From a virus: a stretch of 64,000 nucleotides of DNA. Both the position numbers and the translations under genes were made by a program. The stretch covers positions 1-64,000 of the IMG/VR virus record IMGVR_UViG_3300018026_000007. One strand, 5' to 3'. The notes below the pieces were generated by a model. That model made no database searches and had not been told where the DNA came from. It worked only from the letters and a program-made list of their open reading frames with translations. Position 1 is the stretch's first letter; every line of letters begins with the position of its first letter. Below are positions 7,123-43,366 of the stretch, one piece after another.

Positions 7123-7260
7123 CCTCCCCGCCCCTCGAAGACTCGGGACGGGGATTCCTACTGCTCTCAAGTGCACGATTGCACAAGAGTAGCTTCGGTG
7201 GGTTCCTGACACGACGCCCTTACCTCAGGCGAAGATGACGAGCAGGCTAAAAAGGCTAAT
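7096..7260 (-). ncRNA. Predicted TnpB omegaRNA/reRNA with flanking guide CCATCACCCTGGTCAATTGC
   Basis: Established TnpB biology: scaffold overlaps the tnpB 3' end and right end, and the guide is flanking DNA; 5' boundary approximate. Confidence 0.6.
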
Positions 7261-8412
7261 CCAGCCTCTTTGATGTTGAATGCGCCAACAAAGTCCGCAT
7301 TACCAGACCAGCCGCACTTGACACAAACAAACTTCGCTTGCGTCTTGCGGTTATCCTTGGACGTATGCTTGCACTCGGGACACTTGCGGCTGGTGTTTTG
7401 TGGTGGTACGGCAATTAAGATTCCACCGTTCCACAACATCTTGTATTCCAGTTGACGCCGCAATTCGAAGGGGCTTGCGTCCAGGATTGAGCGGTTGAGC
7501 CCTGATTTCTGGGCAACCTTCTTTCCCGGCTTGTCCTTCGTGCCCTTGCTTGACTTGGACATATTGCTAACTTGCAGGTCTTCGACGAAAACAACGGCGT
7601 GGTTTTTGCTGATGTCTGCCGAGACCTTATGAACGAAATCTTTTCTAATGTTGGCAATCTTGCTGTGCAGTTTGGTGATGCGGGCTTTCGCCTTCTTCCA
7701 GTTTTGGCTAAACTTTTTCTTCTTTGCCAGACGGCGCTGTAGCTTTGCCAACTTTGGCAAGAACTGTTTGAGCGGCTGGCATTGGTCTACGACTAGACCG
7801 TCCGATGCTGTTATGAAGTTGACGACTCCCCAATCCAAGCCGATAGACGACTTGGACGGGTGTTCTGGTACCTTGATTTCTTGTAGTGTGCTGACGCTGA
7901 CGAACCACTTTCCGCAGGACTCGCTAACAGTGGCGTTGCGAATCTGTCCGAGTACATCACGACTGTTGCGATAGCGCACCCAGCCAATCTTCGGCAAACG
8001 AATGCGGCTGTTGACTTGGTCTAGCGTGATGCACTTTGGGTCTGACTCACGATACGAAGTACGCTGTCCCTTCTTGTGGAACTTCGGGAAGTCCGCACGT
8101 TTCTTGAAAAAGTTTTGGTATGCCCTGTCCATATCTACCAAGGATTGCTGCAAGGCGTGCGACGGTGTATCTGAAAGCCAAGGCGTCTCTGACTTCCACA
8201 ATGTAAGCAACTTGTCGAGTTGAAACCGCGTATGCGAACGCTTCGTCAGGTCGTACATTTCCTTCTGGAGTGCCAACGCTTTGTTGTAGATATAGCGCAC
8301 ACTTCCAGCGAAGCGGCGCATCAGCCGCTGCTGTTCGCCGTTAGGCATCAACTCGAATTTGAATGCTTGACGCTTTTCCATTCTTGTATTATACTCTGGT
8401 CTATGGCTAATG
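7116..8412 (-). mobile_element. Non-autonomous IS200/IS605-family element (tnpB only)
   Basis: Right-end hairpin ATCCCCGTCCC...GGGGCGGGGAGGATG ending in TCAA; no tnpA; left junction approximate. Confidence 0.85.
7167..8381 (-). CDS. tnpB: RNA-guided endonuclease TnpB
   Basis: AFKFELMP HTH, RuvC-I GLDWG, RuvC-II VEDL, CPEC/CVKC zinc finger, RuvC-III NAD; TTGACA-17-TATAAT promoter at 8416-8388. Confidence 0.95.
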   Translation of the reverse strand: MEKRQAFKFELMPNGEQQRLMRRFAGSVRYIYNKALALQKEMYDLTKRSHTRFQLDKLLTLWKSETPWLSDTPSHALQQSLVDMDRAYQNFFKKRADFPKFHKKGQRTSYRESDPKCITLDQVNSRIRLPKIGWVRYRNSRDVLGQIRNATVSESCGKWFVSVSTLQEIKVPEHPSKSSIGLDWGVVNFITASDGLVVDQCQPLKQFLPKLAKLQRRLAKKKKFSQNWKKAKARITKLHSKIANIRKDFVHKVSADISKNHAVVFVEDLQVSNMSKSSKGTKDKPGKKVAQKSGLNRSILDASPFELRRQLEYKMLWNGGILIAVPPQNTSRKCPECKHTSKDNRKTQAKFVCVKCGWSGNADFVGAFNIKEAGLAFLACSSSSPEVRASCQEPTEATLVQSCT

Positions 8413-8437
8413 TCAAACTTGTGTTCGTAGATCGACA

Positions 8438-8647
8438 TTATCGTCCCGCCTTGACGCGGACAGTGTTGGACTCGCTGGCGATTCCTGGTGTGCCGTGCGG
8501 GCCGCCCATGTTCAGAACCCAGCCATGGGGTCCGCGCATCACCGCGCGCCCAGTCTTCGCTTTCCATTCCTGCCCATTGCGTCCGATGCCATTGGGAACC
8601 AGGATGGTCACTTTGTCGCCGTGCTTGATGGATTCGACTAAGGTCAT
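8438..8647 (-). CDS. Hypothetical protein
   Basis: Preceded by the conserved GGAGGCAACGCAAATG cassette. Confidence 0.7.
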   Translation of the reverse strand: MTLVESIKHGDKVTILVPNGIGRNGQEWKAKTGRAVMRGPHGWVLNMGGPHGTPGIASESNTVRVKAGR

Positions 8648-35965: not shown

Positions 35966-35999
35966 AAATAAGACTTTTCGCTCTTAGATGAGACTATTT

Positions 36000-38234
36000 A
36001 TGGCTGATACACCGACAACCGAGATTACAGCTACCAGTCATTTCGAAGATAAAGGTCAAATCCGCGTCCAAGACCTGCCTGGAGCCGTGCCATACGGCGA
36101 GACCGCGCTTCCCATTGGTGCTACAGAGGTTGCCTTCCCCGACCAGGGTCGCTCAGACCTGTCGCTGATGAAGGAAGCGAACCTGAATCGCGAAGAATCC
36201 GAGAATTTTATCGCGACGCGGGGTCTGATCGGGCGTTGGAACATGGCGGAAATCATGTTGCGCGCCTGGGTCGAGCCAATCAAGTGGAAAGGCAGTGAAC
36301 AATTCCGCTCTCACTTGGGCGTGCCCTTGGTTGCAGAGCAATTCTACAGCATTCACAGTGTGGTGAACCAAACGCTGTTCGGCGGCTATCAAGTTTTCAA
36401 AATCGACGCCACTTCTGGCACGCCGCTCGAATGCGCGCTGGCTCAACAGGCCATTCTGAACGCGCAATTGAAAACATGCGGGTACAAGGGCGTTTCCGCG
36501 AAGACCGAGTTTCGCGAAATTACCTACGACGGATTGTTTTATGGGTTCGGGGTTGCGCACTACGGCTGGAAGACAGTCAAAAAGAACATCATCAAGAAAG
36601 TTCCCCGCGTTCATACTCAGACGACCAGTGTCAATGGAAACCTGATTCAAATTCCTACTGAGTCAAAGGACGAAGATGATTTTGTCGAAAAGATTGTCGG
36701 CATTTTGGAAATCAATCAACCCATGCTTGAGCATGTGCCGATTCGCAGATTTCGATATGCGCCCGATCTTCGCCGAGGTGATCCGCGATGCTCAGAGTGG
36801 TGCGGTCGGCTCATTTATGTGACAGGATATGACCTGGACGCCCTTCGTAACACCGAAGGCTGGAATATCCCTACCCGCGCTCAACTCGTCGCACTGACAA
36901 CTCCGCAGATGCAGAGCCAGGCGGCAACCAATCCACTGGAGACGCTTGGTTCCAATACTGGCAATCCCGTCTTTCAGCAGACCACGACGCCACAAAAAGC
37001 GTATCCAGAGAATTACACGGAGCGGACAGCGCATGACCCCCTGATGCGCAAATTCGAAGTCTTCGACTATTGGACTGCAGACCGTCATGCGGTTATTCTT
37101 GGCAAAGAGTACGTGCTGCTGAACGAGACGCACAAATTTGGGCGTCCGCCGTTTCTTGGATTCTGTTTCCGCAATGCGCCCGACTCGGCGCACGGCTACG
37201 GCATCGCATTTTGGCTGACCGATTTCCAGCGCGTCTGCCAGGGCGTCATCAATGCTTTCTTGGATGACATGAACTTGAACTTGATGGGTACCTACACGGC
37301 TCCTGCGGGCACTACGAACAGTGCGCAGGCGCAGTGGATTTTCCCAGGTAAGGTTTTCAAGACCGATGCCGCAGGTAAGGTTGAGCCGATGACGCGCAAC
37401 GCGGTCAATGCTCAAGAGCCGCTCTCGGTAATCGCCCAGATGAAACAATGGGCGGCTTCGATCACAGGGGCGGGGCCGAGTACTCTCGGGGCGGCTCCTG
37501 GTCCGTCTGGCGCGATGCGGACTCCCGCAGGTGCAGAGGCGGTCTCTGGCGGCGAGTCGGTCAAGCTCCAAGACTTGGTGGATGTGATTTCGGAACAGAT
37601 ATTCATTCCGTTCATCGAATTCTGTATCGAGCAGAATCAAAAGCTCAAGCCATCTCAAGTACGCGCGATGCTTTCGCAGGCCCTGGGTGATGCATTCAAG
37701 GCCACGCCGCTCGATATTCTTAACGGTTCTTACCGAGTCGATATTTCTGCGGCGACGAAACTCGCGGCGCGGGAAGCACTGAACAAATACATGGGCGTGC
37801 TGCAGACATTCCTGCAATCGCCAGGCACGGTAGAAAATCTTGCCGTCCAGGCCATGAAGCTCGACTACAACGCCATGTTCGAAGCTCTCTACGATTCCTT
37901 CGGCGTGCCGTACAAGGAAAAGATTATCGTGCCGATGAACGACGAAGACAAGGCGCGCATGGCCGCACAGACACAACAGGCCGCCGCGCAGGGCAAACTG
38001 GCACTGGTGCAGGCGCAAGGTGAAGTGAAGAAAGATGTGGACAACAACCAGGCCGAAAATCGGATGTTGATTGAAACAGGCAAGCACACACTGAAGACGC
38101 ATGGAGCAGACCATCAGGCGAGTATCGACGCGGCGCAGGCGAAAGCCGAAGCCGCGACACCGCAAGCCCAGGGTCTCGACCGAGCCGCGAAGGGTGCGTT
38201 TGCGACGATGGACAAATCAGCTTTCGGGCAGTAA
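36000..38234 (+). CDS. Portal protein
   Basis: Follows terL; about 745 aa; GLFYGFGV, HGYGI, Q..IN..LD motifs; Gln/Ala-rich helical tail like P22/T7-type portals. Confidence 0.8.
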   Translation: MADTPTTEITATSHFEDKGQIRVQDLPGAVPYGETALPIGATEVAFPDQGRSDLSLMKEANLNREESENFIATRGLIGRWNMAEIMLRAWVEPIKWKGSEQFRSHLGVPLVAEQFYSIHSVVNQTLFGGYQVFKIDATSGTPLECALAQQAILNAQLKTCGYKGVSAKTEFREITYDGLFYGFGVAHYGWKTVKKNIIKKVPRVHTQTTSVNGNLIQIPTESKDEDDFVEKIVGILEINQPMLEHVPIRRFRYAPDLRRGDPRCSEWCGRLIYVTGYDLDALRNTEGWNIPTRAQLVALTTPQMQSQAATNPLETLGSNTGNPVFQQTTTPQKAYPENYTERTAHDPLMRKFEVFDYWTADRHAVILGKEYVLLNETHKFGRPPFLGFCFRNAPDSAHGYGIAFWLTDFQRVCQGVINAFLDDMNLNLMGTYTAPAGTTNSAQAQWIFPGKVFKTDAAGKVEPMTRNAVNAQEPLSVIAQMKQWAASITGAGPSTLGAAPGPSGAMRTPAGAEAVSGGESVKLQDLVDVISEQIFIPFIEFCIEQNQKLKPSQVRAMLSQALGDAFKATPLDILNGSYRVDISAATKLAAREALNKYMGVLQTFLQSPGTVENLAVQAMKLDYNAMFEALYDSFGVPYKEKIIVPMNDEDKARMAAQTQQAAAQGKLALVQAQGEVKKDVDNNQAENRMLIETGKHTLKTHGADHQASIDAAQAKAEAATPQAQGLDRAAKGAFATMDKSAFGQ

Positions 38235-38700: not shown

Positions 38701-38778
38701 ACCAGTTGCTGAAATCTTATTACAAGTTTTTGACTTTCCTTTCCATTAGTGTAAGTTCACTTTAGGGAGCGTCCAGCA

Positions 38779-39855
38779 ATGAGCACTAATCCAGTTGTCC
38801 TGAATCCCGTAGTCATGAATGACGAGTTGGCGAAGGCTGTCCACGGCGCGCTTGACCCCGAAGATATCAAAGCCGCGATTCTGGCAGAAGCGGCCAAACA
38901 GACCACTGCGGCCACGCAGACGGCGGCTGATACTGCGGCACAAAAAGCGGCGGCGGACAAAGCGGCTGCCGATGCCGTTGTAGCCACGGAGCCTTTCAAG
39001 CGCGTGGAAGTGATCGGCGGACGAGAGTTTACATTCGAAGCCGAGAGCGAGCTTGAACTGGAGCGCGCGGTCAACAACGCTTATAAAGTTGCCTACGCGG
39101 TTCAGGAGTCTGCGCCAGTGGCTGCAGCGACCCCTGCCGCCCCTGTGGTGCCACAAAAGACTGCAGAAGAAATTGCAGCAGAGCGCGCAGAGTTGGACCT
39201 GAAGTTTAAGCGCGGAGATATCTCAACAAAAGAATATCTTGAGCAGTCTGGAGCCGTGGCGGATTACTTGGCCAGCCAGGGGATTTCAATCGATAGGCTA
39301 AAGTCCACAGTTGACCAAAACGAAAATACGCAGTATAAACAGTCATGGGAACAAGCCACTGACTCATTTTTGAACAGCACTGCGGGCGCAGATTGGCCAG
39401 GCGGCACAAAGAATCTCAAACTGATCGGCAGAATTATTGCGGCTGATCCGAAATTGGCTGAGGCGGAAGACAAAGTCGCCGCGTTGGCGCAAGCCTATAA
39501 TCAAATGAAAGCGGATGGTACGGTTTTTCCGCCCGAAGACCCCACACTTGTGGATGCAACTCAGACGCCCGCTGCACCCCCCACTCCAGTAGTTGTGCCT
39601 GCAACCCCCGCTCCCGTAGTCGCGGCTCCTGCGGCTCCTGCGCCGCGCGTAGCGGCAACATCGTCTTCTCTCTTCGGAGCAAGTTCAGGCGTAAGCGCAA
39701 ATACCGCCGTGCCAGCAGCAACAACCACCAAAGTGGATGTCCCTTCAAATGCAACACCAGAAGAAATTCTCGATGCGTGGAAAAAGGCACAGGTCGCCGC
39801 AGGAAAAAATCCCGACGACGCTTTCAAAGAGACCTTTTCTGCCCGTCGTGCGTAG
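38779..39855 (+). CDS. Capsid scaffolding protein
   Basis: Ala/Pro-rich and acidic, directly upstream of the capsid gene. Confidence 0.65.
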   Translation: MSTNPVVLNPVVMNDELAKAVHGALDPEDIKAAILAEAAKQTTAATQTAADTAAQKAAADKAAADAVVATEPFKRVEVIGGREFTFEAESELELERAVNNAYKVAYAVQESAPVAAATPAAPVVPQKTAEEIAAERAELDLKFKRGDISTKEYLEQSGAVADYLASQGISIDRLKSTVDQNENTQYKQSWEQATDSFLNSTAGADWPGGTKNLKLIGRIIAADPKLAEAEDKVAALAQAYNQMKADGTVFPPEDPTLVDATQTPAAPPTPVVVPATPAPVVAAPAAPAPRVAATSSSLFGASSGVSANTAVPAATTTKVDVPSNATPEEILDAWKKAQVAAGKNPDDAFKETFSARRA

Positions 39856-39935: not shown

Positions 39936-39964
39936 TTTTGACTTTCCTTTCCTATAGTGTAGGG
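39936..39964 (+). promoter_or_regulatory. Late-promoter-like motif GACTTT-CCTTTCC-TATAGTGTAG (one of 11 copies)
   Basis: Other copies start at 1115, 5494, 10354, 18165, 23186, 25387, 31975, 35972, 38732 and 41959, all just upstream of + strand genes. Confidence 0.75.
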
Positions 39965-40011: not shown

Positions 40012-41007
40012 ATGATTTTACCGCCTGGCGTGCAGAGTACGACTCTTGCCGCTTTCCCACAGATCGCATACGACCGAACCGCCATTCTTGAGTGGCAGTT
40101 CAACACTCCGTTCCTGGAAGAGCTTTGCGACTTCCGACCTCTGCCGCGTCGGTCTGGTCGGACGCTCCAGTTCTACGGGCAAACTCCGTATGCTGCCGCG
40201 ACCTACGACCTGTCTGAAGGTATCCCAGGGCCGTCACTCCAGTTGAACCAAGTTTTCAGCGATGCATTCGCCGATGAATACGGCGACTGGATCGGCATTT
40301 CGAACGTCGCACAGCAAATGTTCCTTGCGGACATCACGCTGGACGCGAGTCGCAACCTGTCGTATCGGGGTGCTCTGACGAGCAACCTGATCGCGATTAA
40401 CGGCTTCGAAGCCGCTGCGACCGCTCAGGCTTCCGCCCGCATCGACTTGCTCGACAACGAATTCATGCTTTCCAACACGATTCGGAAGTGCGAGTCCCAG
40501 TTGATGGGCAACGCGGTTCCTGGTCGCGATGGTGGGCTCTATACGTCGGCTCAGCACCCGTACGTTGTGTACGACTTCATGTCGGACAACAGCGCGGGCT
40601 CTGCCGTCGATACGCTGAAGCGATCCGAATCGGGTGCGAATGTCCTGAAGTCGGACATGACGCGCGGCTACACCGTCCTGGAATGGGCGGGCGTCCGCAT
40701 CATCCGTACCCAGACCGTGCCGACCTACACCAACTACCCGTCCACGGGCAAGACTGGTTATGCGTCGTACGTTGTGGGCCGCGAAGCCATGATGGCTTCC
40801 GAGTTGCTGGGCCAGCGCGTTCCGCGCAACCCCAGCTTCAAGGTGAACGTCAAGACCTTCGGCGATAACGACATCGACCTCAGCAACCCCATGTTGCAGA
40901 CACGAGCAATCGTGAGCTACGACTGGTTCCTGGGAGTCGTTGCCCGTCCGAATACGAACAACACTCCTGGCTTCCGCCGAGTGCGCTGCGAAGTCAGCGC
41001 GGTGTAG
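40012..41007 (+). CDS. Major capsid protein (N4-gp56-like, HK97 fold)
   Basis: 331 aa; LP...G.T..F, LSEG.P, EYG.W, HP.V.YD, GVRII motifs; position after scaffold. Confidence 0.85.
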   Translation: MILPPGVQSTTLAAFPQIAYDRTAILEWQFNTPFLEELCDFRPLPRRSGRTLQFYGQTPYAAATYDLSEGIPGPSLQLNQVFSDAFADEYGDWIGISNVAQQMFLADITLDASRNLSYRGALTSNLIAINGFEAAATAQASARIDLLDNEFMLSNTIRKCESQLMGNAVPGRDGGLYTSAQHPYVVYDFMSDNSAGSAVDTLKRSESGANVLKSDMTRGYTVLEWAGVRIIRTQTVPTYTNYPSTGKTGYASYVVGREAMMASELLGQRVPRNPSFKVNVKTFGDNDIDLSNPMLQTRAIVSYDWFLGVVARPNTNNTPGFRRVRCEVSAV

Positions 41008-41105: not shown

Positions 41106-41717
41106 GTGTCTAACGCTTCAACCATTCGTCGGCAAGTCGCAGGAACCCAGCAATTGACTCTCGCGTCGTTGCTCGGCTCGACAATTACCACAACGGAGAC
41201 CGCGTTCAAGCTGAACGATAACGGTCTGACCTTGACTGGCGGGGGCGTCGTGCCTCTGGCTGCAGGGAACACTGGGCTGTACGCGGGCACTGGCCAGGTT
41301 ATTTGGATTCACGCTGCGGGTACGATTACGGGCGGAACCGCCAGTTCTACCTCGCTGATTCTCAAACTGTACGAAGTTCCTGCGTCTTTGCTGCCCATCG
41401 CCGATACGCTGGCTGGTCAGCAAACCTTCACAAGCTGGAACCTGATTGCCACGTCGGCGCCGGGAGTCCTCAGTTCGGGTGTCACCGCTGGAAACTTCTC
41501 CGTGGACGCTTATGTCCAATTGGACTCGCAGTACAATCTCGACGGTTGGTTCGAATCGCAGGTATTTGCGTCTACGACTGGCGCAAAGACCGCCATCACT
41601 GCAGTCAAGGGTCTGGTCGGCGAAGCGGATTTGAACTTTGCTCTGACCACCACCTTGGGCGGAACCGAAGCGGGCGTTACCGTCAACCTGAACGAATTCG
41701 AACTCTCGCTCGTGTAG
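41106..41717 (+). CDS. Putative capsid-associated/decoration protein
   Basis: AGGAG RBS; beta-rich; follows MCP before a terminator. Confidence 0.55.
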   Translation: MSNASTIRRQVAGTQQLTLASLLGSTITTTETAFKLNDNGLTLTGGGVVPLAAGNTGLYAGTGQVIWIHAAGTITGGTASSTSLILKLYEVPASLLPIADTLAGQQTFTSWNLIATSAPGVLSSGVTAGNFSVDAYVQLDSQYNLDGWFESQVFASTTGAKTAITAVKGLVGEADLNFALTTTLGGTEAGVTVNLNEFELSLV

Positions 41718-41749
41718 TCCTGAGCGAGCAACAATTTCTTGACACCTCC

Positions 41750-41788
41750 ACCCCTCAGCACCAGTATGGCACTGAGGGGTTTTCTTTT
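41750..41788 (+). terminator. Intrinsic terminator
   Basis: ACCCTCAG...CTGAGGGGT stem followed by TTTTCTTTT. Confidence 0.75.
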
Positions 41789-41989
41789 ATGCTGCCGCTT
41801 GATGATGTCGCGTACGATTCCATCTCAATAGAAGAATGGAAAATGAACACGATGTTTGACAGTTTTCTGGACTTTCGTCCCCTGCCGCGCCGATACAAAA
41901 GCATCTGGCGCGTGCTGCATGTGGATGGTTTCGAAGCTGGAAAACCCGTCATGTTCAAGACTTTTTCTTCCATAAGTGAACCTGAATGA
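41789..41989 (+). CDS. 66-aa paralog of the major capsid N-terminal segment
   Basis: VAYDSISIEEWKMNTMFDSFLDFRPLPRR vs MCP IAYDRTAILEWQFNTPFLEELCDFRPLPRR. Confidence 0.7.
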   Translation: MLPLDDVAYDSISIEEWKMNTMFDSFLDFRPLPRRYKSIWRVLHVDGFEAGKPVMFKTFSSISEPE

Positions 41990-41994
41990 ACAGG

Positions 41995-42071
41995 TGCGGA
42001 GTGGAGCAGTCAGGTAGCTCGTCTGCCTCATAAGCAGAAGGTCGCAGGTTCAAATCCTGCCTCCGCAACCA
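41995..42071 (+). tRNA. tRNA-Met(CAT), initiator-type body
   Basis: Cloverleaf TGCGGAG/CTCCGCA, GGAGCAG..GGTAGCTCG D-arm, loop CTCATAA, TTCAAAT, encoded ACCA. Confidence 0.93.
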
Positions 42072-42073
42072 AA

Positions 42074-42149
42074 GCACGAGTAGCTCAGACGGCAGAGCGG
42101 CTGTTTTGTAAACAGCGGGTCGGTGGTTCGATTCCATCCTCGTGCTCCA
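42074..42149 (+). tRNA. tRNA-Thr(TGT)
   Basis: GCACGAG/CTCGTGC, GCTGT-TTTGTAA-ACAGC, TTCGATT, encoded CCA. Confidence 0.93.
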
Positions 42150-42167
42150 AATTTGTGATAGGATAGA

Positions 42168-42785
42168 ATGATGTTCAACATGGACCCATCTCGGACAAAA
42201 ATCGGCTACCTAGTTCGCCATGGTGAGTTGAAGAACATGCGGATTTGGGATGGCTGGGGTGACTTTGATTTGTCCGAAGAAGGCAAACGCCAAGCCGAGA
42301 AGGCTGCGCAGTGGCTTTCATTCGAACATTTCGGTCGCGTGGTTTCATCCGATGTGCCGCGCACGATGCACACCGCGCAATATTTGATGGACTCTGGCTC
42401 GGTTGACTGCCAGTACATGGTGTGCGACCCGAACCTGCGACCATGGAACGTGTCGGATTTTACGGGCAAGGAAAAAACGCCCGAGCGGATCGCTGAATTC
42501 AAGAAGTACATTGATGACCCAACGCTGCCGATCCCTGGCGGCGAGAGTCGCAATCAACTCAAGGATCGCGTGCAAGTCCTGTGGCAGTACTTCATGGCTC
42601 CGTACAAGGGTCTTCCGACCGTGGGATTCATTCACAACTCGGTGCTGAAATCGTTGATGGGAATCGATGACGTGCGAGATGCCGTGTCGCCAGGCGGGAT
42701 CGTCGCCGTTTATATGACCGAAAAGGGCGAGATTGAATTTCAAATCGTAATGGGCGAAGTCAATTTTGAAAAGGGAGTTTCGTAA
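42168..42785 (+). CDS. Histidine phosphatase (phosphoglycerate-mutase family)
   Basis: YLVRHGE, LSEEG..QA, SSD..R...TA, PGGES and H motifs. Confidence 0.9.
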   Translation: MMFNMDPSRTKIGYLVRHGELKNMRIWDGWGDFDLSEEGKRQAEKAAQWLSFEHFGRVVSSDVPRTMHTAQYLMDSGSVDCQYMVCDPNLRPWNVSDFTGKEKTPERIAEFKKYIDDPTLPIPGGESRNQLKDRVQVLWQYFMAPYKGLPTVGFIHNSVLKSLMGIDDVRDAVSPGGIVAVYMTEKGEIEFQIVMGEVNFEKGVS

Positions 42786-43366
42786 TGGCATCCCCAACCC
42801 CGCCGCTTACTGACCTCGCCGCGCCGATTCTCGCGGGCGATCCCATTCTGTCCGACGAGAACCGTGCCGACCTGTGGGACACGTTCCACAGTTCCAAAAG
42901 TCCCGAAGAACTTATTCAGCACCTGCAGCCATTGGTAATCCCCGACGATACCAAGAAGCGGCTGTACGACGCCAAAAGGCAATCGATGCCCGTGGTCGGA
43001 CCGATAGACAAAGTCACAACCGCCATGCAGCAACTGGCTCAGATAGACCCCAAAATACTGGATGTCGCGGAAGCGCATCCGAATGTCCTGAAGGCACTCA
43101 CCAGCGCGGCTACGACCCCCGAAAAAGGGGCTACAGCGACTTCTGGCGCATCGACACCTGCGGGGAAGGGAAAGACACCAGCCGCTGGCTCTGCGCCCGC
43201 CCCTGTCGCCCTACCGCCAAGACCCGATGGTTTAGAGCACATGCCGCCGATTCCTGAAGGTCATAAGCGCGTCCAAGCCAGCGATGGTGGGATTCATGAC
43301 ATCCCCGAAGAGAACTTGCCCAAGGCATTTGAACTGGACCCCCGACTGCATGTAATGAATCCATAG
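42785..43366 (+). CDS. Hypothetical protein
   Basis: TAATG-coupled ORF preceding the giant protein. Confidence 0.65.
   Translation: MASPTPPLTDLAAPILAGDPILSDENRADLWDTFHSSKSPEELIQHLQPLVIPDDTKKRLYDAKRQSMPVVGPIDKVTTAMQQLAQIDPKILDVAEAHPNVLKALTSAATTPEKGATATSGASTPAGKGKTPAAGSAPAPVALPPRPDGLEHMPPIPEGHKRVQASDGGIHDIPEENLPKAFELDPRLHVMNP

Follow-up and report, generated by a model that had tools for sequence, protein, structure and literature searches.

An undescribed family of small phage proteins with capsid-like arms around an almost invariant core, represented by a 66-codon gene behind the capsid operon of a peat-soil phage

Few triggers of bacterial abortive-infection systems are as common as capsid proteins, which are targeted as well by assembly hijackers that satellites encode. 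The Gol peptide of the T4 protein gp23 activates the Lit protease, and the SaPI1 protein CpmB, encoded by a satellite, mimics the C-terminus of the phage 80alpha scaffolding protein to redirect capsid size. For a tail protein, one report (PMC11087589) describes a phage protein, DSAD1, that competes with the tail-tube protein for the defence sensor DSR2.

The DNA analysed here (the window) comprises 64,000 nucleotides, positions 1 to 64,000 of the IMG/VR record IMGVR_UViG_3300018026_000007, a 74.9-kb viral record that is ~75% complete and derives from a peat-soil phage. The window holds genes for an SU10-like portal (35988-38231), a scaffold-like protein (38779-39852) and a giant 1857-aa protein, and a 66-codon gene lies directly past its capsid operon. 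The features of this region are listed below.

40012 to 41007, plus strand: gene of the major capsid protein (MCP), 331 aa, N4-gp56 family, HK97 fold, assigned by PHROG 1357, JGI names and a structure model
41106 to 41717, plus strand: 203-aa gene, the last of the capsid operon, 5' of the terminator and conserved in relatives
41736 to 41767, plus strand: promoter-like element TTCTTGACA-N17-CAGTAT, overlapping the terminator
41750 to 41788, plus strand: terminator-like hairpin and T-run, with a 9-bp stem in which 41750-41758 pair with 41772-41780
41789 to 41989, plus strand: 66-aa gene of the putative capsid-arm-mimic family (ATG at 41789, TGA at 41987-41989)
41995 to 42149, plus strand: tRNA-Met(CAT) and tRNA-Thr(TGT), beginning 6 nt past the stop codon of the 66-codon gene

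The MCP matched PHROG 1357 ('major head protein'), and its homologues were named 'N4-gp56 family major capsid protein' by JGI. Its AF2 model (pLDDT 77.6, pTM 0.74) had the full HK97 fold and matched the capsid proteins of Pan3, GP4 and N4. The small-protein family contains copies of two MCP segments, residues 18-62 and 248-267; in the model, the first includes a pair of short helices (23-28 and 33-38), a strand (40-44), a loop and a second strand (52-56). The only cue to the host was an Acidobacteriota MAG contig carrying the MCP; among cultured phages, those of Tunturiibacter are closest, with an MCP ~27% identical.

An earlier note, made from the letters of the window, had aligned the 66-aa ORF with MCP residues ~18-47, and this match was reproduced. 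Residues 7-35 of the small protein and 18-47 of the MCP encoded in the same window were identical at 17 of 30 positions with one gap (BLASTP, E 6e-10), and the Smith-Waterman score of the pair was reached by none of 200 shuffles. Eleven of the 17 identical residues were encoded by different codons. The stretch DFRPLPRR does not differ between the proteins, and 5 of its 8 codons carry synonymous differences, exactly as had been noted. Because synonymous sites differ in the window and in genome G001, the match was not ascribed to recent gene conversion from the MCP gene. The protein is divided as follows.

Residues 7-35: similar to MCP 18-47
Residues 36-49 (YKSIWRVLHVDGFE): family core
Residues 50-58: weakly similar to MCP 49-56

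Capsid-like flanks were thus present on both sides of the core, the N flank being strong and the C flank weak in the window protein and supported family-wide. The sequence similarity to the MCP family covers the N-arm part only, and the complete HK97 fold (E-loop, spine helix, P- and A-domains) is not present. Having 66 aa and no HK97 body, the small protein is regarded as derived from the MCP family and not as a member of it. As an AF2 monomer, it gave no confident fold (two short helices, pLDDT 65.6, pTM 0.27).

The reading frame at 41789..41989 is a genuine protein-coding gene of an undescribed small phage protein family, which amounts to ~25 clusters of small proteins and >25 metagenomic loci. 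Most members have ~47-120 aa and a few are longer. A phmmer search of 1.84 billion representative proteins gave 28 matches, of which 25 were genuine small homologues (54-183 aa); P0005, P0022 and P0028 were discarded as low-complexity repeat artefacts. Pattern scans added 6 viral and 29 metagenomic loci. Genomic context was taken only from loci L064-L112, not from the proteins P0001-P0027. No described family was matched in Pfam, PHROGs v4 or PDB sequences (best E 0.076, CopC), the ESM Atlas gave no usable match, and no homologue was found in 50,697 deposited phage genomes (tblastn with the window protein and L084). A genome contig scan for the family also returned no match.

The core, Y-x-S-x-W-R-x-L-H-[VI]-D-G-F-E, comprises 14 residues and is almost invariant across the family. 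It is carried by window residues 36-49 with the invariant W, R, H, D and F, and WRxLH[VI]DGF is a clean search signature for such genes. Invariant positions in alignment A1 were P33, W40, R41, H44, D46 and F48; R30, P31, Y36, S38, L43, G47 and E49 were nearly so. An independent profile, A3, retrieved the 66-aa ORF in the window's own genome at E 2.3e-10. In most family ORFs, an ATG preceded by a Shine-Dalgarno sequence (SD) was located 33-45 codons 5' of the core.

Selection on the protein was evident at two levels. In seven of the eight family pairs with finite dS, dN/dS (Nei-Gojobori) was 0.05-0.31, and it was 0.58 in the pair L094/L098. The best relative at the DNA level, L026, encodes a protein 55% identical to that of the window; pN for this comparison was 0.30 and pS 0.87, which is saturated. 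Within the core, the invariant residues use every synonymous codon, including both the Ser and both the Leu codon families, so the constraint acts on the peptide and not on DNA or RNA. A DNA- or RNA-level basis of the core (intron, homing site or structured RNA) had been considered because the capsid genes of relatives carry inserts, and it was rejected on the same codon usage. An intein was rejected as well, the core having only 14 aa and being carried by no MCP. The view that the ORF is under purifying selection and is not a decaying duplicate thus held, given the conserved family, the dN/dS values mostly well below 1 and the protein-level constraint on the core.

Constraint lapses in some genomes, as indicated by three copies. 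At L065 (9989-10114 and upstream, in G001), there is an in-frame TGA where L084 has Arg, a difference of one change (CGA to TGA), and this copy is either a pseudogene or a sequencing error. The copy in G007 is divergent and has a changed core (WRVLDIDEF). P0001, the closest homologue at 98% identity with the window protein, carries Thr in place of the Pro found at position 33 in all 26 A1 sequences.

Two family genes were found in tandem at L076 (994-1134 and 1635-1859) and at L092 (614-763 and 763-981). The first gene of these tandems is short (47-50 aa), and a CxH...CxxCH N-terminus replaces the capsid-like arms. Some members bear Cys-rich tails, for which zinc-ribbon matches were below threshold.

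The relationship to the capsid protein was also recovered with profiles. When A1 was compared with A2, an alignment of 25 diverse MCPs, hhalign paired family positions 8-63 with MCP 19-62 (95.9%, E 5.7e-9), the core appearing as a 13-residue insert after PRR and the family tail 'KxIQFF' falling on MCP 'RTLQFYG'. Since the insert lies after PRR, between two strands of the MCP model, the core would be placed in the loop of the N-arm hairpin; this picture is based on hhalign and the secondary structure of the MCP model, the AF2 monomer of the small protein itself being poor. Members are laid out as N-arm helices, a strand (DFRPL), the core, and a strand like RTLQFYG. After the core, L089 has LPRRSGRQLQFF, which is identical to MCP LPRRSGRTLQFY at 10 of 12 positions. 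Many members start with a copy of the MCP P-domain strand 248-267 (GYxxYVxGxxA). In the subfamily aligned in A3 (16 sequences), this start reads M..Y-x-T-Y-[VI]-x-G-x-x-A and pairs with MCP 249-267, GYASYVVGREAMMASELLG (hhalign 72%, E 3.3e-5); L098 at 1409-1633 is an example of such a long-type member. Through the P-strand segment, the A3 profile search found the MCP gene in six of six genomes, with E of 3.5e-4 to 8e-3 per genome.

Two capsid types were distinguished: type A, the MCP of the window, and type B, the MCP of G001, which is only 26% identical to the former. The window protein matched the type-A MCP at E 6e-10 and the type-B MCP at E 0.18. L084 behaved in the opposite way. Its residues 20-72 matched residues 23-61 of the type-B N-arm (E 2e-6), the alignment opening a gap of 14 residues precisely at the core, whereas against the type-A MCP there was no N-arm match and only the P-strand was recovered (E 0.015). 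In the type-B comparison, LFDKELI is identical, PFHMGNIRYFFQY corresponds to PLHMGINRTFFQY, and GYRTYICG to GYRTYVFG. The same type-B behaviour was shown by L065 (in G001) and L086, both close to L084. The shuffle table was split likewise, with L082, L086 and L094 assigned to type B and ~25 members to type A. In the cognate pair of G001, identical residues again use different codons, so the resemblance is kept at the protein level and does not reflect recent gene conversion. From these comparisons, the capsid-like flanks follow the capsid lineage of the source phage group while the core stays constant. The tracking is imperfect: L069 lies in G002, which has a type-B MCP, and its P-strand copy, YRTYVVGREAML, is nearer to type A.

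The hairpin at 41750-41780 is followed by TTTCTTTT, and the folded 86-nt stretch had an MFE of -26.2 kcal/mol (z -2.4). Together, the hairpin and the T-run make a convincing predicted intrinsic terminator that would end the MCP/203-aa operon. In L001 and L026, the 203-aa gene likewise has an equivalent terminator behind it, and in L001 a separate promoter (TTGACC-N17-TATGAT) comes after that terminator. The SD of the 66-codon gene, GAGGGG, was placed by the earlier note in the 3' arm of the terminator, and it is there, at 41774-41779, 9 nt before the ATG.

The earlier note had concluded that the protein would be made only by read-through and at low level. This is probably wrong, as an enriched promoter motif overlaps the terminator. 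TTC-TTGACA is located at 41736-41744 and is followed by a 17-nt spacer and CAGTAT at 41762-41767, with a predicted start at ~41774-41775. In the window, 11 copies of TYCTTGACA were counted where 1.08 were expected, and none of 100 shuffles reached 11; a longer pattern that includes the A and T of the -10 hexamer occurs 3 times against 0.02 expected. Ten of the 11 sites are on the coding strand, and most lie just 5' of genes, including that of the permuted tmRNA (1156-1567).

1097, 4576, 9998, 13159, 14595, 41736, 48929, 56548, 56605 and 60230, plus strand: TYCTTGACA sites
52446, minus strand: TYCTTGACA site

A generic promoter and terminator scan called neither the hairpin nor the promoter. 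The hairpin was missed by the consensus scan because its loop exceeds 8 nt, and the promoter because its -10 hexamer, CAGTAT, is weak. A transcript starting near 41774 would not contain the 5' arm of the hairpin, so the SD would be free in it and paired in read-through transcripts. We infer that the 66-codon gene has its own sigma-70-type promoter, embedded in the terminator of the capsid operon. No terminator of its own was found between the gene and the tRNAs, and tRNA-Met and tRNA-Thr are presumably co-transcribed with it from one promoter. The Rfam search over 41600-42250 found no RNA family beyond the two tRNAs. Another promoter-like pair, aagtttTTGACTttcctttcc, is found at 38730, ahead of the scaffold-like gene, and at 39938, ahead of the MCP gene. 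As judged from the nucleotide sequence, an ORF of 66 codons that follows a terminator can turn out to be genuine and to have a predicted promoter to itself.

The distribution of the gene was irregular. Among 62 IMG/VR relatives with MCPs of 75-97% amino acid identity and only 65-75% DNA identity outside the MCP, none had the small gene at the site used in the window. In L026, it sits between the histidine phosphatase gene and the next gene, and its start and stop overlap both neighbours. In the window and in L026, the position is within the late or structural module, near the MCP, scaffold-like and portal genes. In G004 and G005, the gene is ~70 kb from the MCP; in L066, L077, L079 and L083, it lies in tight same-strand arrays of small ORFs, in a region syntenic to window 5.8-14.6 kb; and in L082 and L088, it is near tail-region genes. 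The A3 profile search detected no copy in G006 and G008, which are 97% complete and have MCPs 90-96% identical to that of the window. The earlier note had held that absence from relatives would speak against the gene; taken to the letter, this applies to some genomes such as these two, and it marks the gene as accessory, not as spurious. It is an accessory, mobile gene that is sometimes duplicated or fused to zinc-ribbon-like tails. Over 41650-41948, contigs from four further peat/wetland DNA runs were identical to the window, which places the phage, unaltered in this stretch, in at least these four additional metagenomes.

Between the 203-aa gene and the histidine phosphatase gene (41106-41717 / 42168-43366 in the window) lies a junction that is hypervariable among relatives, ranging from 135 bp to >2 kb, and its tRNA sets vary (Met and Thr in the window; Ala, Met, Gly and Thr in L026). 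The early-looking region of the window encodes, at 7167-8567 on the minus strand, a TnpB-like protein (OrfB_IS605, Cas12f1-like TNB and HTH domains), and this region is the site of the family copy in several relatives. Inserts were also seen in the MCP genes. At L045 (6080-6300; also in L048), an insert of ~220 nt with in-frame stops follows MCP codon 27 directly (between ..AILE and WQFN..), inside the segment copied by the small-protein family. It had no Rfam match in L045 and, from its sequence, may be a small intron-like element. In G002, a terminally repeated phage of 111.5 kb, the type-B MCP gene (L103/L104) is split into four collinear pieces by inserts of roughly 630, 740 and 200 nt. 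ORFs with HNH motifs flank the MCP gene in L026 (5496-5915 and 7004-7432), and both are absent from the window. Judging from these sequences, the phage group seems to have hot spots for intervening sequences in its capsid genes.

The arrangement of the family suggests capsid-arm mimicry as a mechanism. The small protein, for which no autonomous fold is predicted, probably takes its structure on a partner. Its capsid-like arms would imitate the N-arm hairpin and, in the long forms, also the P-domain strand, and they may dock at the site of that hairpin or on whatever recognises it, be it a neighbouring subunit, the scaffold or a host capsid sensor. As the arms track the lineage, they probably contact something lineage-specific (the capsid protein, the scaffold or its sensor). 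The core is constant across capsid types that are 26% identical, so it probably contacts something conserved across phage lineages, and the invariant core would thus engage such a partner. A role in counter-defence or competition would then mean that the protein titrates a factor by which the capsid arm is recognised. Being accessory, mobile, sometimes duplicated or fused, and usually placed among small early-looking genes, the gene is somewhat likelier to serve in counter-defence or competition than in core assembly. The earlier note had proposed a decoy or inhibitor, or a modulator of assembly or size, and either may be right. Taken together, the reading of a real family gene with its own promoter, capsid-arm mimicry and an accessory role in counter-defence or competition is regarded as evenly poised between right and wrong. 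Its most specific form, in which an invariant effector loop is held on co-evolving, capsid-copied arms and acts as a decoy or blocker for host immune sensors, or for rival elements, by which the nascent capsid N-arm is recognised, is offered tentatively and is on its own rather unlikely. As a role, counter-defence or competition is ranked first, followed by an assembly modulator (slightly less likely), a signal on a packaged protein, and an inter-phage weapon.

The strongest competing explanation is a late-expressed capsid assembly or maturation factor that occupies the N-arm docking site on subunits or scaffold, as a chaperone, timer or size modulator. It agrees with the position of the gene within the structural module in the window and L026, with the inter-subunit contacts that the copied N-arm, first E-loop strand and P-domain strand make in HK97-fold capsids, and with the lineage-following flanks, which fit direct contact with capsid or scaffold. 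However, no copy was detected in the 97%-complete G006 and G008, and in G004, G005, L066, L077, L079 and L083 the gene is ~70 kb from the MCP or among early-looking genes. Tandem duplicates and zinc-ribbon fusions exist, and a mimic should disrupt assembly as readily as assist it. An assembly factor is therefore a possible but doubtful explanation.

By analogy with the capsid-targeting sequence of T4, the capsid-arm copy could be a capsid-targeting signal on a packaged internal protein, the core of which would act in the next host after ejection. The protein is small, its capsid-like segment might attach to the scaffold or to the inside of the capsid, and in the window and L026 the gene lies upstream of the one for the giant 1857-aa protein, which is putatively ejected, but most copies are in early-looking arrays, a timing unsuited to packaging, and this explanation is considered improbable. 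Placed about as low is an inter-phage weapon, a dominant-negative capsid fragment that would spoil the assembly of co-infecting related phages. The accessory, mobile distribution would suit it, as would L069, which carries a P-strand copy nearer to type A in a genome with a type-B MCP, whereas most copies match the capsid protein of their own lineage and would harm the carrier too, and no immunity mechanism is evident; it is judged improbable as well. A non-functional remnant, either a decaying 5' duplicate of the capsid gene or a recombined foreign fragment with an ORF open by chance, could draw on the synonymous differences that a fragment of a diverged capsid gene would also show, on the insertions and HNH genes for which the capsid genes of the group are hot spots and on the nonsense codon in one relative, but it is effectively excluded by the conservation of the family: the core, absent from every MCP, is the most conserved part across ~50 homologues at different sites, dN/dS lies well under 1 in most pairs, the start codons and their SDs have been conserved, and the copy is identical in four further metagenomes.

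With capsid-arm mimicry in an accessory role as the preferred reading, a family of lineage-following N-arm copies with a constant core would be a new way to manage the recognition or assembly of a phage's own capsid. If the decoy form were true, no earlier anti-defence protein would be known to consist of parts of the trigger that it protects. Whatever its function, the family offers a natural example of an accessory gene that evolves in concert with a core structural gene, and a two-part model of lineage-specific arms and a constant core.

No described family with such an architecture was found, and both the family and its lineage-tracking capsid mimicry appear to be new. The nearest relative by sequence is the N-arm of the N4-gp56 MCP, which is alike over MCP ~18-62, with the P-strand copy of 248-267 added in many of the small proteins. 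The MCP has 331 aa and the small protein 66; the latter contains no E-loop tip, spine helix or A-domain and so could form no capsomer, and it has its own 14-residue core, found in no MCP, in a separate, mobile gene. CpmB and P4 Sid would be analogous in that a small protein imitates a piece of the assembly machinery and competes for a binding site. They are satellite-encoded and mimic or replace the scaffold, whereas the protein described here comes from the phage and copies the capsid protein. Gol resembles it as a ~30-residue stretch of a major capsid protein that serves as a recognisable module, but Gol lies within the capsid protein, has no gene of its own and sets off defence; no decoy version of it is known. 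DSAD1 would be a functional analogue if the small protein titrates a putative sensor of structural proteins. To our knowledge, DSAD1 has not been reported to be derived from the trigger with which it competes, whereas the arms of the small protein are homologous to the putative trigger. In layout, the gene comes closest to phage morons: its predicted own promoter, its place just 3' of the terminator of an operon, its sporadic occurrence and its changing location in a hypervariable junction with tRNAs and HNH genes would be shared with them. Morons are defined by this layout and not by sequence, whereas the present family is specifically related to a core structural gene.
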